Below are positions 13,101-53,651 of a stretch of DNA of 53,651 nucleotides, piece after piece (positions within the stretch are counted from its first letter, which is position 1; each line of letters starts with the position of its first letter). This stretch comes from a virus (taxonomy: Duplodnaviria; Caudoviricetes), in IMG/VR virus record IMGVR_UViG_3300046837_000247, positions 1 through 53,651 of that record, one strand, 5' to 3'. The notes under the pieces are model-generated. The model saw only the letters and a program-made list of their open reading frames with translations. It was not told the origin of the DNA and searched no databases. The position numbers were made by a program, and so were the translations under genes.

Positions 13101-13650
13101 CGTCTCTTTCGACGACGAAGCCCTAGCCAACACGGGCGACTTCCCAGACAACGAGTTCTACATGCCGGGCGACCACGATGGCTGCACGTGCGACTACATG
13201 CCGGTGCTGCTGGCGCCCGACGAAGTGCCAGCAGCCGAAGGGGGACCAAGTTGGGAGGACGCGGTGGCGATGGTGGCACAGGCCAACGAGGGCACGTCCT
13301 ATGGTACGGCCAACGCCGAGGTCCATGCGGCATCAACGACAACCGACCACCCGCAGTTCTTCTACCATCAGAGCAAGGCCAGCAACCGAGAGTCGATCGA
13401 CGCCACAGGGCTTGAGGCCAATCGATCTCTCGGCGGCAAGACGACTCGCATATACCTTGCGGAAGAGCGGCCCGTGTTGGTGGCTCGCAGTGACAGCGCC
13501 CCGAAAGACCTCTACCGAATTGACACCGCTGGCCTGCCCCTGCGACCCGACCCAGAGCTGCCCGGCAAGTGGGCCATAGCTGAACAGGACATTGCTGCTG
13601 CCCGCCTCAATCTCATAGGCACAACACACCCCGACGGTCTGCCGGGGTAA
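10189..13650 (+). CDS. Portal protein fused to a MuF-like head domain and a C-terminal ADP-ribosyltransferase-like (Tpt1/KptA-type) domain
   Basis: Portal motifs WQADAW...IGE, IWTPSP...ADSP, NHWSAWQV; MuF-like PFEPHVDLDG...PGDHDGCTC; tail YHQS...SIDATGL...IYLA...RID. Confidence 0.85.
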   Translation: MAPWFGKRQKQQGIRVLTAAGKRIDVGDRHEAMVMRALRQGWQADAWNYWASIGEIHYAVKFLANCAARMQLYTAAYPNEGETDKPAPLAEVAGIPPEVASIAEQAMLELGHGKLALGQIMAALSTNTSVAGESWLVGIPDPVTGEPQWKVRSVHEIVIKDDRWTLREVPADAQGIIPWITLDPRTTVLSRIWTPSPQFSKLADSPMRAMLDDCESLLILRRMIRAEGRSRLATAGILVVPNELSIKAPTDDNADPQADPFMGPLAEAMMEPIADEGVASAVVPIVVRGPVEAAKELRHIDMARSFDAEAGKLREELIGIIATSFDLPKEVITGIVDLNHWSAWQVDDNTFRHHVEPHVIECCDSLTAAYLRPYLEAAGVDATLARRVCIWYDATELVTHPDQTKDALDLHDRLVISDEALLRVAGFEAADKPGKPELQVRLLEKMRTWPPNLVMAFLHAWDPTLVAPSMTGPPAIPGIGPGGVEAPEPPPGTPPAAGAAPSPPAQPGGGLPSPATAPPGHNGTPPMQRQLPAPPTTASGGLEAVATVLAADPERAEQLLELLAHAPIAHKADAAAPGEGSTAPEGASEEVPTEPVTLTPEETEQAEAALREYETKTDAEREKEREEAEKAGEPEPGDAPPTAPPGGTIQDLHPRIQREWAQRATRGAKQRHHAKPKAHKGEKRGKGGRFEPLTAAGKRRGKGLRTSQRLVAIDQDLRARLQVAANAAMLRQLERAGQRLRKSVARDERARGKIAHKSTYLVAAALGPAGVAATGLTPTDLLGRDWNGLKAQFEEWVAAAQQQAVRLALGLVDPPKEVVKAAEARLEEQRALAWRSLAAELSQLAERLLYHPHPDDEGPANPNTLVPTGVLRRALAIAGGAKPRVLTAAGEGEVNEGAVATMPTEGVDVVLAGDEPSEGGSVSVGVGQIGTGEAVGDLIEAGGGGQEGWEWVHGPALNPFEPHVDLDGTTFVSFDDEALANTGDFPDNEFYMPGDHDGCTCDYMPVLLAPDEVPAAEGGPSWEDAVAMVAQANEGTSYGTANAEVHAASTTTDHPQFFYHQSKASNRESIDATGLEANRSLGGKTTRIYLAEERPVLVARSDSAPKDLYRIDTAGLPLRPDPELPGKWAIAEQDIAAARLNLIGTTHPDGLPG

Positions 13651-17041: not shown

Positions 17042-17068
17042 CGGGTTCGGGTCTGCACATCTTAGCGC
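17042..17068 (-). promoter_or_regulatory. Motif promoter F (-10 TAAGAT, leader ACCCGAACCCG)
   Basis: Minus strand reads gcgcTAAGATgtgcagACCCGAACCCGaaggagg; back-to-back with a plus-strand TGcTACGCT at 17075-83. Confidence 0.65.
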
Positions 17069-23561: not shown

Positions 23562-23983
23562 CCATCAGGCTCGTCACCGACGGCGCGAAGCTCCAGGCGC
23601 TGCTGAAGGGACCGGGCGGCCCCGTGTTCCGGCACCTATCAGAGCGCGCCACGGTCGTGCAGATGGCCGCGCGGGCCAAAGCGCCCCGGCGCACCGGCTG
23701 CCTGCAGGAGAGCATCGTCAAGCGCGTGGAGTTCGGCGTGCCCTCGGGCTTCATCATCAGGATCGTCTGCGACACCACGCCGTGCAGCCCTACGCGGACG
23801 AGCTACAGCCTGTTCGTTCACGAGGGCACGCAGCCGCACGCGATCTACGGCAACCCGACGCTCAGTTTTTGGTGGGACGCAGGCCCCAACGGGCCGGGCC
23901 AATACTTCTTCAGCAGCGTGCAGCACCCCGGCACGCGCCCGCAGCCGTTTCTGCGGGACGCGCTACCGCTGGCCGCGGGCTAG
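23558..23983 (+). CDS. HK97 gp10-like neck protein, probable ATA start
   Basis: APRRTGCLQESI, VHEGTQPHAI, VQHPGTRPQPFLRDAL; GAGGTG 5 nt before an in-frame ATA. Confidence 0.75.
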   Translation: MAIRLVTDGAKLQALLKGPGGPVFRHLSERATVVQMAARAKAPRRTGCLQESIVKRVEFGVPSGFIIRIVCDTTPCSPTRTSYSLFVHEGTQPHAIYGNPTLSFWWDAGPNGPGQYFFSSVQHPGTRPQPFLRDALPLAAG

Positions 23984-24024
23984 CGCCAGCCCTGTGCGCC
24001 GAGGGAACTATAGCACACCAATAG

Positions 24025-25071: not shown

Positions 25072-28000
25072 GTGACCGACGTCGTAGGCGCAGCAGAGAT
25101 CATCATCACGCCGGTCACGGCTGGCTTCGAGGAGGCGCTGCACGCACAGACGGCCACGCCGCTGGGCAACTTCGGCAAGCGGGCGGAGAAGGCCGGCGAG
25201 GAGGGCGGGCAGAAGCTGAGCAAGGGCTTCAGCTCGGGCACCAGCGGCATAGGCCGCACGCTCAACAACCTGGGCGTGCCGTTCGCCAACTTCGGCGGGC
25301 ACCTTACGACCACGGCCGACAAGATGGCCAAGGTCGATCAGAGCGGTTCGCACCTGGGCGCCACCATGGCCACGCTGGGAGGTCACGTCCTGCTGGGCGT
25401 GGGCGTGGCCATGGCCGGGGTAGCGGCGGCGGGCGTCGACCTGGCGGTGAAGCAGGAAAAGGTCACGGCGGCCATAGCCAACAGCGAGGGCATCAGCGTC
25501 AAGGCCGCCAACAGCATCAGCAACGCCTTCCTGGCCACCGCCGGCACCACCATCTTCAGCGGCAAAGCTATCGGTGAAGCCTACGCCAAAGTCGCCGGCG
25601 AGCTAGGCGCTGTGGTGGGGCACGCCCTGAGTGCCGGCGAAGCCACCAAGGTCATGGCGGCATCCATGGACCTAGCCGAGGCGTCGGGCATCGAGCTAGG
25701 CGCCGCCACCGACTCGCTGGGCAAGATCATGCTGGCGTACCACCTGAACGCCGGGCAGGCGGCAGGCGCCTCAGACGTGCTGTTCAACGCCTCCAAACAG
25801 ACCGGCACGTCGGTGGAGCAGTTGGCCAGCCAGTTGCAGCGTATGCGGGGCCGCCTGGGCGACCTGGCGCCCTCGCTGGCCGAATCGGGCGGGCTCATGG
25901 AGCTACTGGCCAAGCACGGCATCACCGGGCGTATGTCGCTCATGGCCCTGAACGGGGCCTTCAACACCCTGCTATCGGGCGGCACCAAGACGCAGGAAAT
26001 GATGAAACAGCTCGGCATTCACGTGTTTGACTCGAGCGGTAAGTTCGTCGGCCTGACCAGCGTCATCGCGCAACTGCAGCCGAAGCTAGTCGGCCTGAAC
26101 CAGCAGAGCCAACTGCAGGCCACGCGCGCGCTGTTCGGCGCCAGCGCCAATAAGCAACTCCTCGACATCATCCTGCAAGGCCCGCACGCCTACCAGGCCA
26201 GCACGGCAGCGGTGCAGAGGCACGGCGCCGCGGCCGACGCAGCCAAGAAGCAGTCGGAAACCCTTGGCGGGCAGATGAAAATACTGCGCGCCACGGTAGA
26301 AGATCTGGCAACCAAGATCGGGCAGGCGCTAATCCCGATCATCACCAAACTGGCCAAAGGCCTCAGCGAAGGCATCGACTGGCTGAAAAAGCACGAAGCC
26401 GCCGCCAAGGTCCTAGCCGGCGTCATAGCCACGGTGCTGGGCGCGGCCATCGGCTCGTTTGTGGCCGTCAAGGTGGCAGCGTTCATCGGTGGCACGAAAA
26501 ACATGATCGCGGCGATGGTGTCTATGGGCAAGAAAATGCTCGAGACGGCCGGGATCATGGGCACAGCCGACGCAGCCATTGCCGCCGACGCTGAGGCCAC
26601 AGCGGTGTCCGTCGATGCCTCGCTGATGGGCACCGGCATAGGTGTGGCCGTGGTGGCGCTGGGCATAGCCGCCTACGAGCTTTCCCAGCATTGGGAAGCG
26701 GCTATGAAAGGCATGGAAGAAGCCACCGTTGCAGCCGCCAATTTCATCATCGGGATCCTGAACAGCCTGATCGACGTCTTCAACGAAACCATCGGCGAAA
26801 TCACTGGCGACATCGGCAAAATCCAGGAAATGAGCGTCGAAGCCAGTGGCTTCACTCACAAGCAGGAAGAAGAAAACGAAGCCGAAGGCACACCCCGCGA
26901 AGTCGGTGGCAGCAAGTCGGCCACGCAGGGCGGCATCATGGCGTTCTTCGAATCCAAGGGCCTGACCCGTGCGCAGGCCGCCGGCATCGTCGGGAACATC
27001 GAACAGGAGTCGTCCACCAACCCCAACGCGCCCGGCGGAGGGCTGTTCCAGGGCATCGGCTCGCGCTCGGGGTTGGGGTCGGGCAGTGTCAAACAGCAGA
27101 TCGAAGCAGCGTGGAAGGAACTGTCGTCCAACCCCGAATACGGGCTAGCGCAACTCAAGAAAGCCAAGTCGCCCGAGGAAGCGGCGCGCATCTTCTCGCA
27201 GCACTTCGAGAAACCGGGCCAGCCGGAAGTGCAGAACCGCGAAAAATACGCCCGCGAAGCCCTCAAGCAGCACCCCGCCGAAGCCAAGCACACGTCCGCG
27301 ATGGAACACCACAGCAAGGCCCTAGAAGGCGCCGGCCACCTACAGGAAGCCGCCGCCAAGACGCAGCACAAAGCGGCGACGGTGCACCACTCCGCGGCCA
27401 AGAAGGTCAGCGAGTCGCCCAAGGAAATCGTCAAGTGGGCCGAACAGATGGTCGGGCACTTCAAGGAGTCCACCGGCTCCAACCGCGGTCCGGAGCTGGA
27501 CAAGCTGCAGGGTGAATTCCACACGCGCGCCGCTGCGTGGTGCGCAGAGTTCGCTACCACGGCAGCCATGATGGGCGGCGCCAACAAAGCCGTGCGCACC
27601 GCCAGCGTGAAAACGATCCGCGAATGGGCCGAGGCGGGCTCGCACGGCTATGAAAAAGGCGTCAAGAAGACGCCCAAGGCCGGCGACCTGATGATGTTCG
27701 GTGACTCGCACGTGGGCTTCGTCCAGTCCGTGCACGGCAGCACCGTGCAGACGATCGAGGGCAACGTGGGCGGCAGCGGCGGCGTGGCGCACGAGACACG
27801 CAAAGTAGGCGAAGGCGACTTCGCCCGGCCGGCGTACAAGAAGCTCGAAACGGGCGCCGTCGAACTGCAGCGGGTGAGCAAGCAGTTCGAAACGGCGCAG
27901 AAGGAGTGGGTAGCCAAAGTCTCGGCCGACACCAAACAGGGCCAGGACCAGCTCAACAAGATCACGGGCGCGATCCAGTCGGGCGGCGTAAAGGAACTCA

Positions 28001-28734
28001 CGGCCGTGGTGGGCGGCAAGCACGACACGTGGCTGAACAAACTCGTGGCCAAGCTGCACTCGGACCACACCGCCGGCCTAGACAAGATGGTCACCAAACT
28101 GGTCGACGCCCACAAGAAAGCACTGGAAGCGCTCAAGGTGGCGCTGGTCAAGGCCGCCGAAAAAGCCACGGCGGAAAAACTCTCCTACGAAGACAAGATC
28201 CACACCGACCAGGCCGAGCGCCAGGCCACGCTGATCGCCAACCAGGCCAAGACGACGCTCGACAGGGCCGCCATGGTGGGCAAGCAGGGCGCAGACCTCT
28301 TCGCCGCGCAGGCGCAGGTCGCGCTAGACGAATGGAAGGAACGCGATGACGTGGCGATCAGCCTGGCCAAACAGGCGGTGGACGAAACGGAAGGCCACGG
28401 CGAACGGGCAGAGGCCGAAGCCAAGCAGCGCCTCGTCAATACAGAGAACACGGCCAAAGTGAACGAGACCAGCCAGCAGGCGGCCGTCGAGATGGCCAAC
28501 AACGCGGCGCAGGAAGCCAAGAGCGCCGAAGAGCGGGACAAGACGGAAAAAGAACGGCTCAAGGTGGAAGAAGAACGGCTGGCGCAGGAAAAGAAGACCA
28601 CGGCCGAAGGCGCCACGCAGGCGCCGGTCAACTTCACCATCACGATCCCAGACGGGACCAAAATGAGTGCTGGCGAACTGCTGCAGGAGATCAGCTGGCA
28701 CATCCACACGGGCACGCTGCCGGTGGCCAAATGA
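25072..28734 (+). CDS. Tape measure protein with phage tail lysozyme-like and CHAP domains
   Basis: Long Ala/Gly-rich helical protein; AAGIVGNIEQES...GLFQ...FEKPG; AWCAEF...PKAGD...HVGFV...TIEGN. Confidence 0.92.
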   Translation: MTDVVGAAEIIITPVTAGFEEALHAQTATPLGNFGKRAEKAGEEGGQKLSKGFSSGTSGIGRTLNNLGVPFANFGGHLTTTADKMAKVDQSGSHLGATMATLGGHVLLGVGVAMAGVAAAGVDLAVKQEKVTAAIANSEGISVKAANSISNAFLATAGTTIFSGKAIGEAYAKVAGELGAVVGHALSAGEATKVMAASMDLAEASGIELGAATDSLGKIMLAYHLNAGQAAGASDVLFNASKQTGTSVEQLASQLQRMRGRLGDLAPSLAESGGLMELLAKHGITGRMSLMALNGAFNTLLSGGTKTQEMMKQLGIHVFDSSGKFVGLTSVIAQLQPKLVGLNQQSQLQATRALFGASANKQLLDIILQGPHAYQASTAAVQRHGAAADAAKKQSETLGGQMKILRATVEDLATKIGQALIPIITKLAKGLSEGIDWLKKHEAAAKVLAGVIATVLGAAIGSFVAVKVAAFIGGTKNMIAAMVSMGKKMLETAGIMGTADAAIAADAEATAVSVDASLMGTGIGVAVVALGIAAYELSQHWEAAMKGMEEATVAAANFIIGILNSLIDVFNETIGEITGDIGKIQEMSVEASGFTHKQEEENEAEGTPREVGGSKSATQGGIMAFFESKGLTRAQAAGIVGNIEQESSTNPNAPGGGLFQGIGSRSGLGSGSVKQQIEAAWKELSSNPEYGLAQLKKAKSPEEAARIFSQHFEKPGQPEVQNREKYAREALKQHPAEAKHTSAMEHHSKALEGAGHLQEAAAKTQHKAATVHHSAAKKVSESPKEIVKWAEQMVGHFKESTGSNRGPELDKLQGEFHTRAAAWCAEFATTAAMMGGANKAVRTASVKTIREWAEAGSHGYEKGVKKTPKAGDLMMFGDSHVGFVQSVHGSTVQTIEGNVGGSGGVAHETRKVGEGDFARPAYKKLETGAVELQRVSKQFETAQKEWVAKVSADTKQGQDQLNKITGAIQSGGVKELTAVVGGKHDTWLNKLVAKLHSDHTAGLDKMVTKLVDAHKKALEALKVALVKAAEKATAEKLSYEDKIHTDQAERQATLIANQAKTTLDRAAMVGKQGADLFAAQAQVALDEWKERDDVAISLAKQAVDETEGHGERAEAEAKQRLVNTENTAKVNETSQQAAVEMANNAAQEAKSAEERDKTEKERLKVEEERLAQEKKTTAEGATQAPVNFTITIPDGTKMSAGELLQEISWHIHTGTLPVAK

Positions 28735-43508: not shown

Positions 43509-44377
43509 GCCGCTCCTACGGGCGCACGCCCAAGACACCCGACCCCCGCGACTTCCTGCTCGGGGACCACCTAGCGGGCATCGACCCCGTGCAGGCCGTT
43601 GCGGGCGCAACCTTCGGCCACGGCAACACCTACGCCAACTGGCGCATGAACGGCAACGGGCCGGTGCAGCCGGGCGAAGCGCTACCGGCCAAGTGGAAGG
43701 CCGCCAAGGAAGGCGCAGGCGACTGCGTGTATGCCGCCTGGGTCAACGAGGTGAAGGAGGCACTGACGGACGCCGGCATGGACCCAGCTGCGGCCGAGGC
43801 CAAGGTAGGCAACGCCGAGACGGCGATCCGCGCCTACATGAGCACCGGCTACAACCCCTCGACGGGCGCCCACGACGACGGAGCTGAAGTGCGCGACCGC
43901 CTGAAGCGTGCGCAGAAGACCGGGCTGACCCTGGCCGACAAAACCGTGCACAAGATCGGCATGTATGTGGCGGTCGACTACACAAACCTCGACCACCTGC
44001 TGTTCGCACTCAAGTATTTCGAGGGGCTGCCCATCGGCTGCGCGGTCCTGAACGCCAACGAGGAAGCCTTCGGGGAGGCGGAAGGCAAGCTCGACCCGGA
44101 AGGCCACCCGCTGGCGGCCGTGTGGGACGACGAACCGAACGGCGAGGTCGTGGCCCTGCATTGCATCCCGCTCGTGGGCCGGCCGGACAGCACGCACATC
44201 GCCGCGCTCACGTGGGGGCGGCGCGTGTTCCTGACGCCGGCCTACATGGCCAAGCGTGTCGAAGAGGTCTGGGCGTACCTGAGCGCAGACCGCATCAGCG
44301 CCGTGACGGGCAAGAGCTACGAGGGTGCTAGCGAAGCGGTGCTGGCCGAATACATCCAGAAGGTAGTGGCGATGTGA
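43505..44377 (+). CDS. Papain-like cysteine peptidase
   Basis: MNGN...GDCVYAA (Cys), HCIPLVG (His), LTWG. Confidence 0.7.
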   Translation: MSRSYGRTPKTPDPRDFLLGDHLAGIDPVQAVAGATFGHGNTYANWRMNGNGPVQPGEALPAKWKAAKEGAGDCVYAAWVNEVKEALTDAGMDPAAAEAKVGNAETAIRAYMSTGYNPSTGAHDDGAEVRDRLKRAQKTGLTLADKTVHKIGMYVAVDYTNLDHLLFALKYFEGLPIGCAVLNANEEAFGEAEGKLDPEGHPLAAVWDDEPNGEVVALHCIPLVGRPDSTHIAALTWGRRVFLTPAYMAKRVEEVWAYLSADRISAVTGKSYEGASEAVLAEYIQKVVAM

Positions 44378-45471
44378 AGGCCTACGGATGCGGCTTCGAC
44401 GGGCACTACGAGCTAGGGCAGGGCTGGCCGCGCAAAGCCATGGAAGGCCAGGCGAAGCTCAAATGGACGCTAATCCCGAACCTCGGCTCCGATAACGCCT
44501 GGTGCCACACGCTGTCGTTCTCATCGCTGTTCCTGAAGCAAGGAGCCGTGACGCTGACCGACGCCCGCCCTAACACCGTCTATGCGCTCGGGACAACGCT
44601 GGCCGGACATCTGCTGCTGGGCTGGAAAGACCAGTCGGCGGTATGGTTCCCGTCCAGAACGCTGCTCCCGCCATGCGCGCAGATCGCCGGCACCTGCAAC
44701 CATCCCGTGCATCTGACACTCGACGGGCGGATCGTCACCGGCGGCCCGAACGCCGAAGGGACGTTAGCCAACGGCGAAAGAGGCACCCGTGAAGAACCGA
44801 AAGCAGTTTCCGTGCCGGTGTTCCCCGACCTGTCCGCCTTCGCCGGCAAACGGGTAATCGCAGTCGACGGGGGCTACGGCCACTGCGGCTGCCTTTTCGA
44901 TGACGGGACCACCGCCGGCTGGGGGGAGAACGCCTCATCCCAGGTCGGGGACGGCACGCTGACCGACCGGCTGGTGGTCACGCAGACGATCGCCACGGAA
45001 GTCGTCGCCTTTGCGTGCCTGTGGAACGCAAAGCTCTACCTGAAAGCTGACGGGCGGGTTTCGATGGTCGGCAACAACAATCAGAACCAGTCTGCCGGCG
45101 CCGCCCCTGCAATCGCCCATTCGATCAAGCAGCCGTTACTGATCCCTGGCCTTGAAGGGATCATCGCTGTCGCCGGGGCAGGCGGACGTGCTCTAGCCGT
45201 CGACGTGAACGGCGACCTGTTCATGTGGGGTGCCGACGAACCCGGTCCGCCGCGGAAGGTGCTCGATCAGGTGTCTGCGATCAGCGCCGGCTGCTACCAG
45301 TGGGCCACAACATGCCTCGCCGTCCGCGACGGGGAAGTCTGGGCACAAGGCCGCGCGAACTATGGGCAGATTGGAGATGGCACGCGCGACGATAAAGAGG
45401 CGTTCGTGCCTACAGGCTTCGGGGCGTCTGTCATCAGCGCCGGGGAAACGCATAGCCTGGCGCTGGCCTAG
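44374..45471 (+). CDS. RCC1/BLIP-II-like beta-propeller repeat protein
   Basis: Repeats WGEN..SQVGDGT.TDR, G..NYGQIGDGT..D, ISAGETHSLAL. Confidence 0.85.
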   Translation: MKAYGCGFDGHYELGQGWPRKAMEGQAKLKWTLIPNLGSDNAWCHTLSFSSLFLKQGAVTLTDARPNTVYALGTTLAGHLLLGWKDQSAVWFPSRTLLPPCAQIAGTCNHPVHLTLDGRIVTGGPNAEGTLANGERGTREEPKAVSVPVFPDLSAFAGKRVIAVDGGYGHCGCLFDDGTTAGWGENASSQVGDGTLTDRLVVTQTIATEVVAFACLWNAKLYLKADGRVSMVGNNNQNQSAGAAPAIAHSIKQPLLIPGLEGIIAVAGAGGRALAVDVNGDLFMWGADEPGPPRKVLDQVSAISAGCYQWATTCLAVRDGEVWAQGRANYGQIGDGTRDDKEAFVPTGFGASVISAGETHSLALA

Positions 45472-45475
45472 CCGC

Positions 45476-45598
45476 TACACTCCCTCGCCAGCACCGCAGG
45501 ACCGCCCCGTAACGGGCGCAGCACGCTGGCCTAACGCCCGCGTGATCCTCGCCACAGGCCCCAACCTGATGGTGTTCCCCAGCGAAGGAGGAGAGCCC
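45476..45598 (+). promoter_or_regulatory. -10 TACACT and structured leader of about 110 nt
   Basis: Nested stems; two loops ending in TAAC; SD AAGGAGGA at 45585-92. Confidence 0.45.
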
Positions 45599-46066
45599 AT
45601 CAGACGGCTACTCGCCCTAGTTGTAGTTGCCCTGTCCATTCCTACCGCAGCGCTCGCAATGCCCGCCCACAGCAGTGTCTACCACGCCCACAGCCGGGGT
45701 TGCCTGACCCGCGCGTGCGATGGGCGCGTAGACCACTGGCTGCGCCGATGGCGGGAAGCACACCGCCCCAAGGTCACCGGCCCCGAATACGTGGGCATGG
45801 CTACCTACTACCAAACCGAAGGCTGCGACGCGAGCGGCGGCGGCGGCACGACCGCCATGGGCACGGCGCCCCACTTCGGCGAGGTCGCCAACAGCGTGCT
45901 GCCGCTAGGCACCCGCATCTGGGTGGAGCCGGCGATCAAAGGGCGCCACGAATTCCGCGTCGAGGACCGCTTCGGCGGGCAGCAGGAAGCCGGACGCCTA
46001 GACGTGTGGATCCACTGCGGCGAAGAAATCCCCAACCCGACAGAGCGGTTCCACGTGATCGGCTAG
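45599..46066 (+). CDS. Secreted 3D-domain (MltA-like) cell-wall enzyme, probable ATC start
   Basis: Signal peptide RRLLALVVVALSIPTAALA; ATYY...TAMG...VA...LPLGTRI...VEDRFGG...LDVW. Confidence 0.8.
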   Translation: MRRLLALVVVALSIPTAALAMPAHSSVYHAHSRGCLTRACDGRVDHWLRRWREAHRPKVTGPEYVGMATYYQTEGCDASGGGGTTAMGTAPHFGEVANSVLPLGTRIWVEPAIKGRHEFRVEDRFGGQQEAGRLDVWIHCGEEIPNPTERFHVIG

Positions 46067-46069
46067 GCC

Positions 46070-46300
46070 GGGACGAACGGGCACCGAGGGAGGCGCCCAA
46101 AGCATGGTGGCGGGCTGGCTAGGCGGCTGGCTCGCCACCTCCTAAGAGCAGAGAAGCGCATCGTCGCGCCGCAAGCCTTCTCGGCAGCACGCCCCTTCGG
46201 TCCCAACCACCCTGACGCGCCGCACGTCTCCTGAGGCCTGGCGAGGCTGACGACTGCGGGGCGTGAGCGCCGGGCGGCGCTAGGCCCGTGCTATGCGGTA
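46070..46300 (+). ncRNA. Candidate structured non-coding RNA
   Basis: No credible ORF; at least five stems including a 10-bp GGTGGCGGGC/GCTCGCCACC. Confidence 0.4.
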
Positions 46301-46351
46301 CGCTTTCGCTGGCTGCCACATACAGCCTCGGAGCATACACGCTCCCCCCAG

Positions 46352-46390
46352 CAAGCGCCCCGGCCCAGCGGTCCGGGGCGCTTGTGCTTT
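46352..46390 (+). terminator. Intrinsic terminator
   Basis: 12-bp stem CAAGCGCCCCGG/CCGGGGCGCTTG followed by TGCTTT. Confidence 0.75.
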
Positions 46391-46402
46391 AGGCTGTAGG
46401 CC

Positions 46403-46654
46403 ATGGAGGTCCCAGATCTGGCCGCACAGCAGCAGCAACTGCCGCCCAAGCAGATAGGCTTCCCGCCGCCGCCAGTCATGCATCTCGAGGTCGCCCCGGC
46501 CGGGCCGGGCCACGTGATGCTGAAGATGCTGGACCGCCAGCGCAACGAGCTGTATGCGATCCCGATGACGACCGGCTACGCCCGCGAACTTGGCAACGAA
46601 CTAATCGCGCCCAACGTCGTGCCAGCGAACGGGAACGGAACACCACCCGCATAG
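46403..46654 (+). CDS. Hypothetical protein
   Basis: Clean ORF after a TAGGCT -10-like box (possibly leaderless). Confidence 0.6.
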   Translation: MEVPDLAAQQQQLPPKQIGFPPPPVMHLEVAPAGPGHVMLKMLDRQRNELYAIPMTTGYARELGNELIAPNVVPANGNGTPPA

Positions 46655-46696
46655 TCGTGCTATATTCGTCGGGTAGCCCAAACCCGACGAAAGGAA
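46651..46696 (+). promoter_or_regulatory. Motif promoter C
   Basis: ATAGTCGTGCTATATT, then 8-bp stem TCGTCGGG/CCCGACGA around tagcccaaa, then AAAGGA. Confidence 0.75.
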
Positions 46697-46701
46697 ACAC
46701 G

Positions 46702-46977
46702 ATGGTAACCAAGGCACCAACGAAGGAAGCGCTTCGCCGCGACCGCGTTCTACTGGCCTTGCGCAAGCAGCCCGACCAGACTTGGCAGCAGTTGGCGGGG
46801 CCACTGGCCGACATGAAAGAAGACAGGCGTGTCGTCTGGGTATGGGAGGCAGAGAGGGATGGCTGGATCCGTAAGTCGGGCGGCGTGAAAAACGGCAGGG
46901 GTCGGCCGTCTAACACCTACCGCCTGACGCCCAAGGGCAGCAAGCGCGCCAGCGCGCTGGCCAAACGCGCGGCGTAG
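46702..46977 (+). CDS. Winged-helix DNA-binding protein
   Basis: RVLLALR...TWQQLA...GWIRK...GRGRPSNTYRLTPKG. Confidence 0.8.
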   Translation: MVTKAPTKEALRRDRVLLALRKQPDQTWQQLAGPLADMKEDRRVVWVWEAERDGWIRKSGGVKNGRGRPSNTYRLTPKGSKRASALAKRAA

Positions 46978-46989
46978 GCTATCCTGCGT

Positions 46990-47072
46990 GCAGCGGTCGC
47001 TCGGCGATCTGCTCACGCGGGTTTGGGTGACACGCGTGCTCGTGGCCTCGGCTAATCCCCGGGGCCACGGGT
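46990..47072 (+). ncRNA. Candidate trans-acting antisense sRNA with three hairpins
   Basis: -10 TATCCT 46980-85; central stem CACGCG/CGCGTG with loop GGTTTGGGTGACA complementary to the leader motif; 11-bp 3' stem. Confidence 0.7.
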
Positions 47073-47077
47073 CGTCT

Positions 47078-47121
47078 ATAGGCGTGCTATGCTGCGGGAA
47101 CCCAAACCCCGACTAGGGAGG
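47078..47121 (+). promoter_or_regulatory. Motif promoter B
   Basis: ATAGGCGTGCTATGCT...ACCCAAACCC...GGGAGG. Confidence 0.8.
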
Positions 47122-47126
47122 CACCC

Positions 47127-47915
47127 ATGACAGACGAGCCTAGCCACCAGCTTGTGCGCGTGGCCGCAGCTACCGACATACCATCGGCGCAGGACATCAA
47201 CCTGCTGGGCACGGTGGCCGAGAACCTGGCCAAGTCGGGCATGTTCCCAGACGCCCGCACCGCCTCGCAGGCGTTCGCCAAGATCATGCTGGGCCGCAGC
47301 CTGGGCCTTGGCCCCATGCAGGCCATGACCGGCATCCACATCGTGGAGGGCAAACCGCAGCTGGCGGCCACCACGCTGGCTGGCTTTGTGCGCCAGCACC
47401 CGGACTACGACTACCAGGTGGCGCAGCACGACGACAAGACGTGCGAGATCTTCTTCTACGGTGCAGACAGCCGCGAGCTAGGCACCTCGAGCTTCACGCT
47501 GGATGAAGCTAAGCAGGCAGGCCTAGTAAAGCCGAAGTCAGCCTGGGAGAAATACCCCAAGAACATGCTCTTCGCCCGCGCCATGAGCAACGGCGTGCGC
47601 TGGTACTGCCCCGACCTCTTCGGTGGCGTGCCGGTCTACACCGAGGCCGACGAGTTCGAGGTGCGCCCGGCGCTAACGCAGGGCCGCGGCGACGGCGAGC
47701 CGGTGGGCATCGAGCTGCCAGCGGCTGTGGAGGCGATCATTGCGCGCGCAACCGAGTTGGGCCACCAGGGCCTAGCCGACCGTGCGGCAGCAGAGATGGC
47801 CATCGGCGGCATGCCCGTCAAGATGGTGGCCGTGTGGGTGGCTACCGCCGAGGCCGAGCTGGACGCGATCGAGCAGGCGGCCGTCGACGCCGAGGTTGAG
47901 GAGCCCGCCAAATGA
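47127..47915 (+). CDS. RecT/Red-beta-like single-strand annealing protein
   Basis: GLGPMQAMTGIHIVEGKP...FTLDEAKQAGL...WEKYPKNMLFARA...PD. Confidence 0.8.
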   Translation: MTDEPSHQLVRVAAATDIPSAQDINLLGTVAENLAKSGMFPDARTASQAFAKIMLGRSLGLGPMQAMTGIHIVEGKPQLAATTLAGFVRQHPDYDYQVAQHDDKTCEIFFYGADSRELGTSSFTLDEAKQAGLVKPKSAWEKYPKNMLFARAMSNGVRWYCPDLFGGVPVYTEADEFEVRPALTQGRGDGEPVGIELPAAVEAIIARATELGHQGLADRAAAEMAIGGMPVKMVAVWVATAEAELDAIEQAAVDAEVEEPAK

Positions 47916-48115
47916 CTATGCGTGGTGCGCGACGCCACGCAGCGCAGGCGGCGTCTCATGTAGGACAAGCGCGCGACCATCGGCGGCAGCTGGCCCGGCT
48001 GTTGCGTGCTGCCCGCACACAGATCCCAGACGATGCTGCGTGGCGGCAGTGGCTAAAGGAGAACACGAGCCTGACACCGCAGCAGGCAGACGGCTATATC
48101 AGGAGGGGCAAATGA
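47912..48115 (+). CDS. Hypothetical protein
   Basis: ATGA overlaps on both sides. Confidence 0.6.
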   Translation: MTMRGARRHAAQAASHVGQARDHRRQLARLLRAARTQIPDDAAWRQWLKENTSLTPQQADGYIRRGK

Positions 48116-49185
48116 AGATACCCGACGCCTTTCGCCAGTCGCTGGTTGGCACCTTTGACGACTGCGCCCTGGCCACGCGCTTCGAGTTGGAAGGCCACCG
48201 CGAGTGGTCAAGCAAGGCGCAGGCGCGCGGCACGATCTTCCACAGTATTGCCGAGGAGATCTTGCGCACCCTGCACCGTCAGGGCGAGAACGCGATCAGC
48301 ACGCAGGAGGCCATAGAGGTCGCCTACGAGGTGATGGCCCAGCGCGACGTGCCGGCAGGCGATGTGGTGGTGCTGGACGCCGACGAGCGGGCCATGCTGA
48401 TCCGCACGGTGCTGATGTTCGCTGGCCTCACGTGGGACGACCTGCACATCGTGGGGCTGGAGAAGCGTCTGACGGTGCCGATCAAGTGCGAGGACGGCAA
48501 GACGCGCACGTTCACCGGCAAGCTGGACCTCCTGGCGGCAGACCCGCCGGGGGGAGCCATCGTTGTGGATTTCAAGACTGGCTGGGGGTCGCCCAAGGAC
48601 AGCCGCGGCCCCGAGGAGCCGGTCGGCAAGCAGTACCTCAGCGAGCGCGGGCACTTCCAGCTGGACGCCTACGGGCTGCTGGTGATGGGCACATACCCCA
48701 GCATCGACCACGTGACGTTGCGGGAGTTCCACGTGATGACGGACGCCGTGCGTGAAGCCACGCTGACCCGCGACGAGTTGGAGCACGTGACGCGCGAGCT
48801 GGGCGTACAGATGGAGCTGCTGGAACGGGCCATGACCGAAGGCGCCAAGTCGAAGCTGTGGAAGCCCACGCCCGGTAAGCATTGCCAATGGTGCTGTCGG
48901 CCCAGCGGCTGTCCTATTGCGGCGGCAGAACGCGGCGAGGGGGCCGTGGAGACGCCCGAGATGGCTGCAGAATGGGCTGAGGGTCTAGTGGCTGCTTCGG
49001 CCAGTCGAGACAACTATCGCAAGGCACTAAAGGCATACGTAGACGAGACTGGCGCCATTGTGCCTGCAGGGCGCAATCTGGCTGTCGGCTGGCGCGTGGA
49101 CGACAAGAACGGACGGCGTGCCTTCGGCATATATCCACGGGCTACGCTTGAAGACCAGCGGAAGATCGGAGCCGCAACCCCATGA
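48112..49185 (+). CDS. PD-(D/E)XK Cas4/RecB-like exonuclease
   Basis: GTIFH, GKLD, VVDFKTG, QLDAY, HCQWC...CP Fe-S-type cysteines. Confidence 0.88.
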   Translation: MKIPDAFRQSLVGTFDDCALATRFELEGHREWSSKAQARGTIFHSIAEEILRTLHRQGENAISTQEAIEVAYEVMAQRDVPAGDVVVLDADERAMLIRTVLMFAGLTWDDLHIVGLEKRLTVPIKCEDGKTRTFTGKLDLLAADPPGGAIVVDFKTGWGSPKDSRGPEEPVGKQYLSERGHFQLDAYGLLVMGTYPSIDHVTLREFHVMTDAVREATLTRDELEHVTRELGVQMELLERAMTEGAKSKLWKPTPGKHCQWCCRPSGCPIAAAERGEGAVETPEMAAEWAEGLVAASASRDNYRKALKAYVDETGAIVPAGRNLAVGWRVDDKNGRRAFGIYPRATLEDQRKIGAATP

Positions 49186-49670
49186 AAGCCATCGATATCG
49201 GCGAGACTTACGGGCGCCTCACGGTGCTGGCGTCTGCCGGCACAAGCCCCGAAGGTAGGGCACTTTACGACTGCCGATGTGAGTGCGGAACGCGACGCGT
49301 AGTCCTAGGTAGAAACTTGGGCAAGACGGTCTCGTGCGGATGCCTGCAGCGAGAGAAGGCTGCAGCACGGATGCGCGGTCTGGCTAGGCACGGGCATTGC
49401 AATCCGGCCAGCCCGACCTACACGACGTGGAACGGGATGCATATGCGGTGCCGCGATCCGCGCACCAACGGCTACCACAACTACGGCGGGCGCGGCATTC
49501 GCGTTTGCGACCGCTGGCGCGACTTCGCCAACTTCTTAGCGGACATGGGCGAGCGCCCAGCGGGCCTGACGCTAGATCGGATTGACCCAGACAGAGATTA
49601 CGAACCGGGCAACTGCCGCTGGGCAACACGCTCAGAACAGCGGCGCAATCAACGAAAGAAGGCAGCATGA
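49182..49670 (+). CDS. HNH homing-type endonuclease
   Basis: YGRLTV...CRCECG...SCGC; YGGRGIRVCDRW...DMGERP..LTLDRID...NCRWAT. Confidence 0.9.
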   Translation: MKAIDIGETYGRLTVLASAGTSPEGRALYDCRCECGTRRVVLGRNLGKTVSCGCLQREKAAARMRGLARHGHCNPASPTYTTWNGMHMRCRDPRTNGYHNYGGRGIRVCDRWRDFANFLADMGERPAGLTLDRIDPDRDYEPGNCRWATRSEQRRNQRKKAA

Positions 49671-49951
49671 CCGACGGAGCAACACAGCCACCCCTGCAGG
49701 CAGCACCCGACCCGGCGCCGGCACAGCGCAAGCGGAACCCGGTCTACGCCGTGTTCTTCAAAAGCGCGACCGGCGGCTGGACCTGCATGAGCACGAACCG
49801 CGCGGCGGGCAGCCGCAAGGAGGCCGTGTTGGCCGAGTGCAAGGCCAACAACGAACCGGACCTCGAGGGCGAGTTCATGGTGATCCCGGCCGACGCCATC
49901 AAGCACATCAAGCGCACCGTGAAAAAGCAGACCGTCGATGAGTTCAACTAA
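49667..49951 (+). CDS. Hypothetical protein
   Basis: ATGA overlap; typical codon usage. Confidence 0.6.
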   Translation: MTDGATQPPLQAAPDPAPAQRKRNPVYAVFFKSATGGWTCMSTNRAAGSRKEAVLAECKANNEPDLEGEFMVIPADAIKHIKRTVKKQTVDEFN

Positions 49952-50147
49952 GCCCACCACATTCGGCAATGGCCGGCCGGCGGCACAGCGCACACCGCGC
50001 AAGTCGCTGAAGGATCGGCTGGCCGAGGGACCAGGCGCTGGTGAACGAGACGCACGTGCGGCTGCGCAGGGAATTCCGGCGCCGCGACAAACGGCGCAAC
50101 CCCGACGGCTGGCGCCTGCCACCGGACAAGGAGTGCGGCGATCGTAG
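49938..50147 (+). CDS. Small basic hypothetical protein
   Basis: ORF tiling. Confidence 0.45.
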   Translation: MSSTKPTTFGNGRPAAQRTPRKSLKDRLAEGPGAGERDARAAAQGIPAPRQTAQPRRLAPATGQGVRRS

Positions 50148-50164
50148 GGGCTACTCTTGAGGGT

Positions 50165-50380
50165 ATGTCCGATGGCACCGGACGAGCGGCAAGAGAGGAA
50201 GGTCGGGCCGGCTGGGAGGTCGTTGTCCACCAGCGCGACGCGGCCCGGCGGGAACGCGATGAGGCGAGGCGCGAGTGCGTAGACCTGCGCGGCCAGCTGG
50301 ACGCCCTGCAGCTCCGTATGGCTACGCCTGGCATCACATCGTCTACCAGCAGACCGTCCGGCGGCACGGCGGCAACCTAG
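50165..50380 (+). CDS. Small coiled-coil hypothetical protein
   Basis: TACTCT -10-like box just upstream; QRDAARRERDEARRE. Confidence 0.5.
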   Translation: MSDGTGRAAREEGRAGWEVVVHQRDAARRERDEARRECVDLRGQLDALQLRMATPGITSSTSRPSGGTAAT

Positions 50381-50598
50381 ACGACCCGCGCAACCTGGTG
50401 CTGGTGCGCAACGACGCGCACGAGCACCACCACAAACGGTCGCGGGTCATCCTGCTGGCAGCCCTGCCCGACGCCGCCTACGAGTACGCTGCCGAGCTGC
50501 TGGGGCGGGGCAAGGCATACAACTACCTGCGCCGGCACTACGCGGTCGGGCCGCCACCCCAGCGTAGAGAGGACCCTCGGCTTGCAGCTTTGCTATAG
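50275..50598 (+). CDS. HNH-like protein
   Basis: HHIV...DPRNLVLV...H..HH. Confidence 0.6.
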   Translation: MRRPARPAGRPAAPYGYAWHHIVYQQTVRRHGGNLDDPRNLVLVRNDAHEHHHKRSRVILLAALPDAAYEYAAELLGRGKAYNYLRRHYAVGPPPQRREDPRLAALL

Positions 50599-50633
50599 CC
50601 GCGCTATAATGGGGTTCACCCAAACCCAAGGAG
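50595..50633 (+). promoter_or_regulatory. Motif promoter D
   Basis: TATAGC-CGC-GCTATA palindrome over TATAAT; TCACCCAAACCC; AAGGAG. Confidence 0.8.
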
Positions 50634-50639
50634 CGAACA

Positions 50640-51067
50640 ATGGCAACGCCGTATCTAGACCCCAAGACGAAGCACCCGCATCCCGGCTGGGTTGATCCGG
50701 AAGCCGATCTCGTGGGCTTGAAAACTTGCAGGCGCACTTCGAATCGCTGACCGATTGGGCGATGTTGGATGGCTGCTGGCCGGCCAACGTTCACCCCGGC
50801 GACATAGACGGTTTCATAGAGCGTCGCGGCATCAGTCTGTTCTTGGAGCATAAGAAACCGGGCGCGAAACTAGGCCGCGGGCAGATGATCGCCTACGAGA
50901 GCCTCGCTCGGCAGGGCAACACGACGCTGGCGTGTTGGGGCGACCGCCTGAACGTGGAAGCCCTGCAGATCATTGGCCCCAGCGGCACGCGGCCTATCGT
51001 CGAGGCCTCGCTAGAGGAGATGCGGCGACTGTGTGCGGGATGGTGGCGGCAGGCCAGCCGCAGATAG
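50640..51067 (+). CDS. PD-(D/E)XK (VRR-NUC-like) nuclease, split by a -1 frame change near 50720
   Basis: ATG ORF 50640..50750 overlaps a -1 frame ORF carrying PGDIDG..ER.G..LFLEHK...GQ. Confidence 0.6.
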
Positions 51068-51298
51068 AACGACTACGGCCCGACACACGAGGATCGCCGG
51101 GCCGTAGTATGCTGTGCCGCTGAGAGTTATGCGCGGGGCAAGCGTAGCAAATGTCGCGCCCCGCGCGGTCTGCAGGTCACCGCGAAGGAGGGCACCATGA
51201 CCGAGCTGCAAACCCCCCAGAGGCTAGGGCGCTGGGCTATGCCACGAGAACGCACGGCACCCACGCGGGAGGCTACTGCAGCATCCGGGTAGGCGGCT

Positions 51299-51841
51299 AT
51301 GGCCGCCCCGGCGCAGCACCTAGCGCCCATCCCAGACAGGCAGACGGGCGAGTTGCAGCCAGCGACGCCCGAGGGCCTGGCGCAGGAGAACCAAGCCCTG
51401 CGCGACGAACTGGCTGGCGCCATGCGCTCCCTAAGAGCCGAGTCGCGGCGCCTGGAGGAGCTAAAGCGAGACCACCAGGCAGAAGCAGAAGAACACAAGC
51501 TCTGGCCACAGGCCACCAACCTGTTCGCGCACTGGCAGAAAGCGTGCAGGCACCCCGGCGCCGACTGGAAATGGGAGCGGTTCGAGTTGGTGGTGCCGTA
51601 CCTGAAACGGCGCAAGTACGGATTGGAGCTGTGCCTGCGCGCCATCGCGGGCGCGGCCTTTGACCCGTTCGTCACCAAGGCGAAAAACGGCAACCCGATA
51701 CGTCACGACGGCTGGGATCTGATCTTCCGCAACTCCGAAAAGTTCGAGTCGTTCTGCAACCGTGCTCCGGTGCCGTGGGAGTGCCCGGACCTGGCGCCGT
51801 TCATGCGGCCTGGCCCGGTGCTGGTGGTGGTGGGCGGGTGA
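51299..51841 (+). CDS. Hypothetical protein, possibly related to replication-initiator C-terminal domains
   Basis: Coiled coil then LFAHWQ...LCLRAI.G...DPF...WDLIFRN.EKFE.F. Confidence 0.55.
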   Translation: MAAPAQHLAPIPDRQTGELQPATPEGLAQENQALRDELAGAMRSLRAESRRLEELKRDHQAEAEEHKLWPQATNLFAHWQKACRHPGADWKWERFELVVPYLKRRKYGLELCLRAIAGAAFDPFVTKAKNGNPIRHDGWDLIFRNSEKFESFCNRAPVPWECPDLAPFMRPGPVLVVVGG

Positions 51842-52284
51842 GCAAGTTGCAGGTGGTGCCGATGACACTGAGGGAGGCGAACGCTTACGTCGAACGCAAC
51901 CATCGTCACAGCGTTCCCGTGCGCGGCATGAAGTTTGCAATCGGGGCGGCTCTAGGCGAGGCTGTGGTGGGCGTTGCTCTCGTCGGTCGTCCCGTGGCGC
52001 GCGTAGCAGACGACGGCTGGACGGCCGAGGTTCTGCGCGTCTGTACAAATGGCACGCCCAACGCACCTTCAATGCTGTATCGCGCCTGCTGGCGGGCCTG
52101 CCGCGCGATGGGCTATCGGAAGCTCATCACATACACGCTCAAGACAGAGCCGGGCACGAGCCTGCGCGCGGCGGGATGGACCGTTGTCGGGGAGGTTGCG
52201 AAGCGTAGTTGGCATACACCGTCGCGCCCGCGCGTAGATAGAGACGAGCGACAGGAGCGTTTCCGCTGGGAGATCGTGGCGTGA
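51838..52284 (+). CDS. XF1762-family protein (Mom-like/GNAT-like)
   Basis: ANAYV..NHRH...VGRPVAR..DDG.TAEV.R.CT.GT.NA.SMLY...MGY..LITY...E.GTSLRAAGW. Confidence 0.8.
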   Translation: MSKLQVVPMTLREANAYVERNHRHSVPVRGMKFAIGAALGEAVVGVALVGRPVARVADDGWTAEVLRVCTNGTPNAPSMLYRACWRACRAMGYRKLITYTLKTEPGTSLRAAGWTVVGEVAKRSWHTPSRPRVDRDERQERFRWEIVA

Positions 52285-52670
52285 GGTATTGGACATGTCG
52301 GCGGCAGGCCAAGGGCGTCGTGTGCGGCGCGCGCAACCCGGCGGTCAAGCAGCGATGCACCGGCTGCGGCAAGCCTCGGCCGAAGCGCCAGGCCCCGGCC
52401 CACAAGGCCGCGCTCGACCTGCCATACGAGACCTACGTCAAACTGAACGGCGGCGACCACTGCTACCTCTGCGAACGCCAGCCCAGCGCCGGCCGCCGGC
52501 TAGACCGTGACCACGACCACCGCACGGGCCAGCCGCGGGGTCTCTTGTGCCACCGCTGCAACCGGGCTCTGCCCAGCTGGACGACGCCGCAGTGGCATCG
52601 GCACGCGGCGGCCTACCTGGAAATAGGCGTGCTATGCTCTGTGCTACCCAAGCCCAAGGAGGCCGCGTGA
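52281..52670 (+). CDS. Endonuclease VII-like protein
   Basis: CYLC...LDRDHDHRTGQPRGLLCHRCN. Confidence 0.88.
   Translation: MRYWTCRRQAKGVVCGARNPAVKQRCTGCGKPRPKRQAPAHKAALDLPYETYVKLNGGDHCYLCERQPSAGRRLDRDHDHRTGQPRGLLCHRCNRALPSWTTPQWHRHAAAYLEIGVLCSVLPKPKEAA
52623..52662 (+). promoter_or_regulatory. Motif promoter E
   Basis: ATAGGCGTGCTATGCT...ACCCAAGCCC AAGGAGG. Confidence 0.75.
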
Positions 52671-52867
52671 AGGTCCCGCAGATAGTCGGCAAGCCCGAGG
52701 CTGCGGCCATCCTGGGCATCCACCCGAACAACATGAAGCAGGACGGCAAGTGGGGCTATGGCCTGCCGCCGTCGCTACAGGACCGCGGGCTGGCCGAATG
52801 CGCCACGACGCCCCTTTGGCTTCGCAGCGAGGTAGAGGCGGCTGCACGCAGCAGGAAGAAGCCGTGA
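52667..52867 (+). CDS. AlpA/Xis-like HTH protein
   Basis: IVGKPEAAAILGI...LP....PLWLRSEVE. Confidence 0.7.
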   Translation: MKVPQIVGKPEAAAILGIHPNNMKQDGKWGYGLPPSLQDRGLAECATTPLWLRSEVEAAARSRKKP

Positions 52868-53013
52868 TGCGGATGCGGATGCGGGCGGGTTGGCTACAGG
52901 ACGGCCACTTCTGGCTTACGCGAGGCAGGTGGTTCTGGCGCTACACGTACTGCTACAACTGCGGGTTGCCGTACCGCGATGGCCTTTCTAAGTGCTCTAG
53001 GCGAGGCCGATGA
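52867..53013 (+). CDS. Small Zn-binding hypothetical protein
   Basis: TGATG coupling; CYNCG. Confidence 0.45.
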   Translation: MRMRMRAGWLQDGHFWLTRGRWFWRYTYCYNCGLPYRDGLSKCSRRGR

Positions 53014-53014
53014 C

Positions 53015-53290
53015 GTGGCTGAGGAACCTCTGTCGGGCTATGGTGACCGCCCTGTGGTTGGCGGCCCGCTCGATGGCCACAACGCCACTGCGACCGCTGA
53101 GTGCTTCGCCTACCTCGATGCCTCCGGTGACGCCTGGGACCTGGACGGCCCCGGCCGTGCCCTCTACCAGCGCCGAGGCACCCTCTGGGAGTTCGCCGGC
53201 CATGGCCAATACCTGTGCGTGGGATGCCGAGCGATGGTGGCTTCCCGAGCGGGCAGCACTTGTCCGCTGTGCGGAGCTGGACAGCCGTGA
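53015..53290 (+). CDS. Hypothetical protein with GGPLDG motif and C-terminal Zn ribbon
   Basis: VVGGPLDG; CVGC...CPLCG. Confidence 0.55.
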   Translation: MAEEPLSGYGDRPVVGGPLDGHNATATAECFAYLDASGDAWDLDGPGRALYQRRGTLWEFAGHGQYLCVGCRAMVASRAGSTCPLCGAGQP

Positions 53291-53428
53291 ACGGGCTGCG
53301 CAGTTCGTGGACGGCGTGAAGTTTGCGCTGATCGCCGAGTCCAACGAGGTCGACGACGACGAGGTCTACGCAGCCCTGACGATACTGCTGGCCGACGTGT
53401 TGGAAGCCCAGGACAGGCTGGCCGCCTA

Positions 53429-53651
53429 ATGGGCGGGGTGCACCTACGTAATCGCACCTGGGAGTGTGAGGAGACAGGGATGGTGGTGCGGCGGTGCTCG
53501 CGCTGCGAGCAGGTCAAGGTGCTGCAGGAGTTCGGAGACCAAAGCAGGCCGGGCATCTGTTCCGATTGCCGCATGGCGTACTACCGCGCCCTGCGCCGGG
53601 CCGGGCGGATCAAGCCGAAGGAGAAAGAGAAGGAGCGGCTACGACGCAAAG
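53429..53651 (+). CDS. 5' part of Zn-finger + HTH protein continuing at the window start
   Basis: TAATG coupling; CSRCEQVK...F...CSDC; open into the repeat. Confidence 0.8.
   Translation, partial: MGGVHLRNRTWECEETGMVVRRCSRCEQVKVLQEFGDQSRPGICSDCRMAYYRALRRAGRIKPKEKEKERLRRK
53550..53651. repeat. Right copy of terminal direct repeat
   Basis: Matches 1..102 with one mismatch. Confidence 0.97.

Follow-up and report, generated by a model that had tools for sequence, protein, structure and literature searches.

A single antisense copy of a shared promoter-leader motif downstream of a putative regulator gene in a siphovirus-like soil phage

In an uncultured, siphovirus-like soil phage, a strongly folding 149-nt spacer between the gene of a putative regulator and a RecT-like gene carries one inverted copy (TCACCCAAACCCG on the minus strand) of a short motif that otherwise stands, in sense orientation, in the leaders of six transcription units. 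The locus raises the question of whether this inverted copy, here called the anti-leader, works as an RNA that pairs with these leaders, as a protein-binding site in the DNA, or not at all. An earlier sequence-only reading had taken the spacer for a free-standing small RNA with its own promoter and the antisense segment displayed in a loop, which may gate the six units as an early shut-off or as an immunity switch. The window, i.e., the whole stretch of DNA that was analysed, comprises an entire IMG/VR virus record (53,651 bp, 66% G+C), which is classed as "linear" and estimated to be 70% complete; its DNA was also found in rhizosphere and soil metagenome runs. The plus strand carries nearly all genes of the window (Table 1), which also encodes a PD-(D/E)XK exonuclease and an HNH endonuclease; tRNA genes were not found in the window. 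The proposed immunity role gains nothing from the gene content, since the 53.6-kb record, at an estimated completeness of 70%, yielded no Phage_integrase or Recombinase match (integrase, serine recombinase). The portal ORF is 1153 amino acids long, and its portal homology is limited to residues 11-521, so that it encodes a large fused portal protein; the C-terminal 630 residues gave no family match. Contigs from four DNA runs were identical to the window region wherever they covered it (one spans 46612-48045 with 0 differences), and thus provided no natural variants to use.

Table 1. Features of the window discussed in the text; positions are counted from the first base of the window.
Feature	Position	Strand	Remarks
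DNA methyltransferase	3663-4400
Large terminase	6155-7492
Portal	10189-13650
Major head protein	17186-18937
Tape measure	25072-28734		with lysozyme and CHAP domains
Winged-helix-like protein	46702-46977	+	putative DNA-binding regulator, 91 aa; has consensus cassette P46657
RecT-like annealing protein	47127-47915
Endonuclease VII	52281-52670
Cassette P721	711-758	+	ACCCAAACCCG at 737-747; followed by a 93-aa ORF and an operon including a DNA methyltransferase
Cassette P17064	17030-17078	-	ACCCGAACCCG at 17042-17052; fronts a 59-aa ORF divergent from the major head gene
Cassette P46657	46647-46701	+	ATAGTCGTGCTATATT, 10 nt, GCCCAAACCCG at 46676-46686, weak Shine-Dalgarno; 23.7 bits
Cassette P47084	47074-47126	+	ACCCAAACCC at 47100-47109; fronts the RecT-like gene
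Cassette P50601	50591-50639	+	TCACCCAAACCC at 50616-50627; longest match (12 nt) to the anti-leader
Cassette P52629	52619-52666	+	ACCCAAGCCC at 52646-52655; within the last codons of the endonuclease VII gene
Hairpin 1	46983-47021	+	long imperfect stem; 3' base CGGG is the start of the anti-leader; then TTTGGGTGA
Anti-leader	47018-47030	+	CGGGTTTGGGTGA; can pair with 10-12 nt in each of the six leaders
Hairpin 2	47034-47075	+	14-bp GC-rich core stem, 7-nt loop; then GGGTCGTCTATAGG

The shared leader exists as the sequence-only reading had described it: all seven copies of the motif, six in sense orientation and the complement at 47018-30, were recovered at their positions, and each sense leader sits between an extended -10 element (GYGCTAWNNT) and the Shine-Dalgarno sequence of its unit. 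The six cassettes have a common order, in which an ATAG-N-CG-YGCTAWNNT extended -10 element without a -35 element is followed by a G-rich stretch of 7-10 nt, by A/G and CCCRARCCC, by a Shine-Dalgarno sequence 0-7 nt past the leader motif, and by the start codon; 37 nt are identical between two of them (710-746 and 47073-47109). The promoter element GYGCTAWRNT has 7 matches (1.82 expected; 0 of 100 shuffles reached 7), 6 of which carry the leader, the exception being on the minus strand at 24016. In the whole window, counting both strands, ACCCAAACCC occurs 4 times against 0.07 expected and, for the degenerate form, ACCCRARCCC was matched 6 times against 0.64 expected, counts that none of 100 shuffles reached in either case. 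On a matrix of 20 columns built from the six cassettes, these score 16.6-27.1 bits, in part by construction since they also supplied the matrix; 6 of the 7 sites above 16 bits carry the motif and no operon-internal gene does, which ties the leader motif to promoters. The purine before CCC lies 7-8 nt past the -10 hexamer in five cassettes and 10 nt past it in one, distances from which we infer transcription to start at the A/G just before CCC; the leader motif probably forms the first ten bases of each early-type mRNA.

P52629 overlaps the end of the endonuclease VII ORF and P721 that of ORF 580-762, so that promoter and leader are also coding sequence there; at both places the adjoining ORFs share GTGA start/stop overlaps. 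The remaining cassettes lie directly behind an upstream ORF or in a short divergent spacer, and a long spacer occurs only at 46978-47126. The promoter-like site without a leader, GTGCTATAGT, runs leftward on the minus strand (24016-23925) between two tail-assembly genes; at 24012 it scores 16.8 bits on the matrix, to which it had not contributed, and it has no ORF behind it. The site is followed by about 78 nt whose last part is a hairpin, located within the 3'-terminal part of gene 23738-23983 and with a fold z of only -1.5, and it could possibly yield an antisense RNA.

Another non-coding stretch, of 336 nt (46067-46402), separates the last late gene from the early region. It contains a GC hairpin (46106-46139), a canonical intrinsic terminator (46351-46392) and, at 46288-46297, GTGCTATGCG, which closely resembles the promoter except for its defective -10 element and scores no better than chance (11.9 bits); positions 46296-46400 fold at -57.0 kcal/mol (z -4.66). 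A second small RNA is one possible identity of this stretch, a genome end or a packaging region another.

The protein of the regulator gene that precedes the anti-leader had a single homologue, with 56% identity and encoded on a 537-bp contig, among 5.8 billion proteins, and IMG/VR yielded no relative. The AlphaFold2 model, of low confidence (pLDDT 64), has a helix-helix-helix-wing topology; Foldseek returned weak but consistent matches to MarR, PadR and AspA proteins (E of 0.018 or higher), and a PadR profile matched below threshold (E 0.025). A perfect 7-bp inverted repeat, CGTCGGG-N9-CCCGACG, spans the leader of the regulator's own cassette at 46667-46689; its geometry is that of a dimeric operator, and suggests that the regulator may be autoregulated at the DNA level.

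The anti-leader element (46978-47075) begins one base past the regulator stop codon and the anti-leader itself 41 nt past it; its bases 47019-47028 are the sole copy of the leader that is antisense to local transcription. Dinucleotide shuffling of the 98-nt element (5000 replicates) produced Watson-Crick runs of at least 11 to any leader at a frequency of 0.002, and a single antisense copy by chance is unlikely; the expectation of about 0.035 extra copies on one strand is a significance calculated only after the motif had been noticed. The spacer folds at -57.2 kcal/mol on the plus strand (z -4.67, reached by 0 of 200 shuffles) and at -39.0 kcal/mol on the minus strand (z -2.32). A search of Rfam, proposed along with the free-standing small RNA, returned nothing for 46978-47075 at E <= 10. 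The element was also considered as a seventh leader, read on the minus strand, and this candidate was rejected: that strand has neither a promoter-like site nor a Shine-Dalgarno sequence, and the antisense GC profile (0.76/0.56/0.65) is that of non-coding DNA.

The predicted structure differs from the three hairpins of the sequence-only reading. The minimum-energy fold has two long hairpins, the second ending where the RecT cassette begins; the CGGG of the motif closes hairpin 1, and UUUGGGUGA forms the linker to hairpin 2. The three-hairpin fold costs about 9.7 kcal/mol in an RNA starting at 46992, and it is this alternative fold alone that exposes the motif in a 13-nt loop; CACGCG/CGCGTG (47014-47038), which closes the loop, flanks the anti-leader as a perfect 6-bp inverted repeat. 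Accessibility depends on the 5' end of the RNA: when nucleotides 46978-46991 are included, the motif has its UUU and UGA mostly exposed (unpaired probability 0.56-1.0) and forcing GGGUUUGGG open costs 8.2 kcal/mol (RNA from 46978), vs. 9.7 kcal/mol for an RNA from 46992; in RNAs from 46990-46992, the motif is buried, with an unpaired probability of at most 0.22 at every base. No U tract follows either hairpin, and GGGTCGTC stands after the strong hairpin 2; a terminator scan of 44000-53651 found two terminator-like sites, neither of them at the element.

The anti-leader can form 10-12 contiguous pairs with each of the six leaders, at or near the ribosome binding site. The predicted duplexes range from -20.5 to -25.2 kcal/mol, and the costs of opening are 1.1-7.9 kcal/mol for the targets and 8.2-9.7 kcal/mol for the element; net binding is thus favorable in all six leaders, and pairing with all of them is, by these models, energetically feasible. 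Whole-length duplex energies were also calculated for 144 candidate start regions, but were of no use in DNA of such high GC content, as intramolecular structure does not enter into them. Within the predicted regulator transcript, which contains both the antisense segment (47018-47028) and a target (46676-46686), the model mRNA 46673-47078 pairs 47019-47027 with 46685-46677 at 1.0 and 47028 with 46676 at 0.94; when the RecT leader is included in the model, the anti-leader pairs downstream and not with the regulator leader. Such long-range pairing within a translated mRNA of 400 nt is a thermodynamic prediction. As an argument for recognition at the RNA level, the sequence-only reading had pointed to deviations in the leader core that preserve G-U wobble pairs; all three core deviations are indeed A-to-G, with p of about 0.04-0.12 by our own arithmetic, which makes this weak support, and at position 11 three of the six leaders would mismatch C47018.

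Our preferred reading, at a probability of roughly 0.4, is that the anti-leader belongs to the 3' untranslated tail of the mRNA that encodes the winged-helix regulator, where it would close this mRNA in cis and perhaps act on other leaders in trans. In this proposal, 46978-47075 would be the tail, and its two stable hairpins would insulate the one-gene regulator unit from the RecT promoter; the anti-leader (GGGUUUGGGU) would sit at the foot of hairpin 1 and in the linker between the hairpins. With transcription of the cassettes presumed to start at the A/G before CCC, every early-type mRNA would open with ACCCAAACCC at its very 5' terminus. In cis, a helix of 10-11 bp would then join the 5' end of the regulator mRNA to its 3' tail; in trans, the tail, or a processed fragment of it, may pair with the other five leaders. 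The most likely effect would be reduced ribosome access: in four of the six leaders the Shine-Dalgarno sequence stands directly behind the motif, and pairing would hinder ribosome binding there. As part of the regulator transcript, the anti-leader would be made whenever the regulator is transcribed and would need no promoter of its own, and the lack of support for a separate promoter favors this 3'-UTR origin. What the analysis shows are the sequences with their statistics and the predicted energies; start sites, transcription of the element, and any effect on translation or stability are inferred; transcription of the anti-leader assumes that RNA polymerase does not stop before 47019, and if hairpin 1 terminated at its UUU, the anti-leader would be cut short.

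Relatives of the phage were used to follow leader and element separately. A blastn search of 46400-47400 against 50,697 phage records gave no match, and the best relatives of the RecT-like protein have at most 45% identity; the cassette series was absent from the loci of these RecT relatives and from the whole record G001. The major head protein led to 34 IMG/VR loci. The pattern GCTATNNTN{7,10}CCCAAACCC was found in 113 stretches; among the 80 listed, which had one match each, two (L023 and L073) looked cassette-like, and the pattern ATAGNCGTGCTATGCTN{5,10}CCC was found in the relative G002 only. This closest relative, a contig of only 19.8 kb with hits to 32 window ORFs and a head protein 64% identical to that of the window, carries TATAGCCGTGCTATGCT-ggctct-ACCCGAACCCGAGGAG-ATG on the minus strand just upstream of its head gene, the same place and the same leader variant as P17064. 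Between its head gene and the divergent cassette (locus L130, approximately 9640-9720, minus strand) lies an insertion with a tRNA-like T-arm, GAGTTCGAATCTC. The 54-kb relative G004 has hits to 41 window ORFs in conserved order, and its TGCTAACCT promoters have the leaders ATCCCAACAGC, ACCCAACCCGG, and ATCCCAACCGC, one of them in front of the RecT orthologue; no complement of at least 10 nt to the 5' part of these three leaders was found in this genome. At the place of the window's regulator it has a divergent SSB gene, with leftward transcription upstream of RecT. The almost unrelated G012 (two ORFs with hits) contains GCGCTATGGT-gcaggc-ACCCAAACCCGAAAGGAG and the leader-like ACCCAAAC. Both the regulator gene and the anti-leader are absent from G002, G004, and G012. 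The leader core is older and wider than the element, and its retention in relatives without the element indicates that the leader has a role independent of it, possibly in promoter escape, 5'-end stability, or translation.

As an alternative to the 3'-tail proposal, the spacer could hold nothing but terminators or an insulator, with the leader complementarity arising as a coincidence of a G-rich stem foot and a short T run; two very stable hairpins lie exactly between the stop codon and the next promoter, TTT stands directly behind the stem of hairpin 1, and relatives with similar leaders do without any anti-leader. The match was moreover noticed post hoc, and a local chance of 0.2% becomes, by rough estimate, about 0.05 over all non-coding DNA of the window. 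This explanation, unlikely as we judge it but to be taken seriously, has difficulty with a 10-mer expected just 0.07 times in the whole window on both strands, with a match that extends to 11-13 nt and is framed by the perfect inverted repeat, and with hairpins that both lack a canonical U tract, while the window has a canonical terminator at 46351-46392. The motif may alternatively be read at the DNA level, as an asymmetric repressor site at +1 to +10 of each promoter, the inverted copy being an extra site near the regulator gene. The adjacent winged-helix protein, probably DNA-binding, is the obvious candidate repressor, the strict coupling of motif and promoters (6 of 7 sites) would be expected, and the 7-bp inverted repeat across the leader lies in the regulator's own promoter; monomeric repressors that read asymmetric sites are described for Cluster A mycobacteriophages (PMC9283540). 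The inverted copy, however, overlaps no promoter and stands 60 nt ahead of the -10 element of the RecT cassette, phages that have no homologue of the winged-helix protein retain the same leader core, and all three core deviations keep RNA pairing via G-U, the latter being weak evidence. PadR- and MarR-like proteins, furthermore, usually bind dyads, and the motif is not one. Taken together, a DNA operator appears rather improbable.

More doubtful still is the free-standing RNA of about 80 nt, transcribed from TATCCT at 46980 and acting in trans on the six leaders from a 13-nt loop. The complementarity to all six leaders is as this proposal requires, CACGCG/CGCGTG is able to close the loop around the motif, and TAGGC-TATCCTGCG loosely resembles TAGGCGTGCTATGCTGCG. 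The supposed -10 element (46980-85), however, is a bare TANNNT that lacks the TG and has no correctly spaced ATAG upstream; with a score of -3.9 bits, vs. 16.6-27.1 bits for the cassettes, it ranks 1797th among 107,262 positions, and a sigma-70 scan found no site in the element region. An RNA starting at 46990-46992 would bury the motif, the loop fold lying 9.7 kcal/mol above the ensemble, and the missing U tract behind hairpin 2 and the empty Rfam search argue in the same direction. It is very improbable that the anti-leader is the relic of a lost divergent minus-strand leader: G004 offers a precedent in its divergent SSB gene, whose CCCAACCC leader lies about 300 nt upstream of its RecT promoter, but the minus strand of the window shows no remaining promoter-like site or Shine-Dalgarno sequence upstream and no coding signal in the antisense frame, and a neutral remnant would not keep 13 perfect nucleotides amid decayed surroundings. 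The observation behind the sequence-only reading is real and non-random; its mechanism, RNA pairing with a shared leader, is at best right in kind, and its particulars (own promoter, loop display, immunity role) are probably wrong.

The P4 CI and P1 C4 RNAs, which are processed from operon leaders and control one operon of temperate elements, are small structured RNAs that display a short antisense segment and thereby control downstream phage genes. The predicted arrangement in the window is similar in that the antisense segment and a target would share one transcript; unlike in these systems, the segment is located in the 3' tail, it would have as its targets six distinct units, at their 5' ends, and no integrase was found in the window record. 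Pairing between 5'-UTR and 3'-UTR is described for the Staphylococcus aureus icaR mRNA (PMC3868564) and the Bacillus subtilis hbs mRNA (PMC5737220), where it alters translation or decay; in the model of the regulator mRNA, the 3' tail motif likewise pairs with the 5' leader. The two are cellular genes with a single target, whereas the leader in the window is common to five further units, so that action in trans is possible. The stoperators of Cluster A phages, asymmetric repressor DNA sites located between genes throughout the genome and oriented with transcription (PMC9283540), resemble the window motif, which is likewise short, asymmetric, oriented with transcription, and spread over the genome; unlike the stoperators, it is restricted to promoters, where it takes up what are probably the first ten transcribed bases.

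The nearest system yet described is the start-associated sequence (SAS) of Cluster K mycobacteriophages, a 13-bp asymmetric motif before the starts of 11-19 non-structural genes (PMC3203893; PMC11373665), which the window motif resembles in its working at most. SAS and ESAS have one orientation and frequently come with an upstream module that carries a promoter (Pope et al., 2011, PMC3203893; PMC11373665), one SAS copy has the opposite orientation in the four subcluster K1 phages, and the authors leave open whether an RNA or a protein binds. As with SAS, a short, asymmetric, repeated motif is tied to gene starts and promoter modules in the window. SAS (GGGATAGGAGCCC) contains the Shine-Dalgarno core, lies 3-9 bp before start codons, and occurs also inside operons; the window motif precedes the Shine-Dalgarno sequence, starts at the presumed +1, and accompanies promoters only (6 copies). 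With no sequence similarity to SAS, it is not a member of that family.

The reverse SAS copy of Cluster K was examined for a comparable setting. The right half of the Anaya genome has 15 forward copies and 1 reverse copy at up to 2 mismatches, the reverse one in the 385-bp gap between gp96 and gp97, a gap that is kept in 182 Cluster K records and is mostly unannotated. An alignment of 9 of the 182 records, picked across the identity range, showed a conserved terminator, an invariant TAGACT within the nearly invariant TTTTAGACT (8 of 9), and a structure of 52 pairs. Twelve of these pairs change on both sides, vs. 5.7 +/- 1.5 in shuffles (1 of 500 reached 12) and 1-3 in slid controls, in a count made on the same alignment from which the structure was derived. 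The reverse SAS (CCTCCTATCCC) forms the apical loop of helices 4 and 5 in four of the nine sequences; of the other five loops, four are C/U-rich but different, and one (Keshu) is unlike them. The Cluster K hairpin, behind the terminator and TTTTAGACT (Anaya, locus L129, 29765-29986), is a candidate anti-SAS non-coding RNA and offers a structural precedent for the anti-leader. Our literature search found no description of this RNA; it covered papers outside subscription and their main text, and a description may be in print among subscription papers and supplements.

To our knowledge, the targets of the phage antisense RNAs described to date are limited to a single operon or a few host genes. 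Tentatively, and with odds that we put somewhat on the unlikely side, some actinophages may tag the starts of their early mRNAs with a common sequence and gate the resulting regulon by one structured RNA that shows the exact complement. The window would be one instance, its anti-leader lying in the tail of the regulator mRNA, and Cluster K the other, where an anti-SAS would be carried by the loop of the covarying, conserved hairpin downstream of the conserved promoter-like TTTTAGACT. The genetics and RNA-seq data of Cluster K phages already exist in Mycobacterium smegmatis. If this idea is true, the repeated motifs at gene starts that have been listed for actinophages from 2011 on, but left unexplained, would gain a testable function, and a single complement to a shared tag would provide a compact post-transcriptional switch for a whole temporal class of genes.
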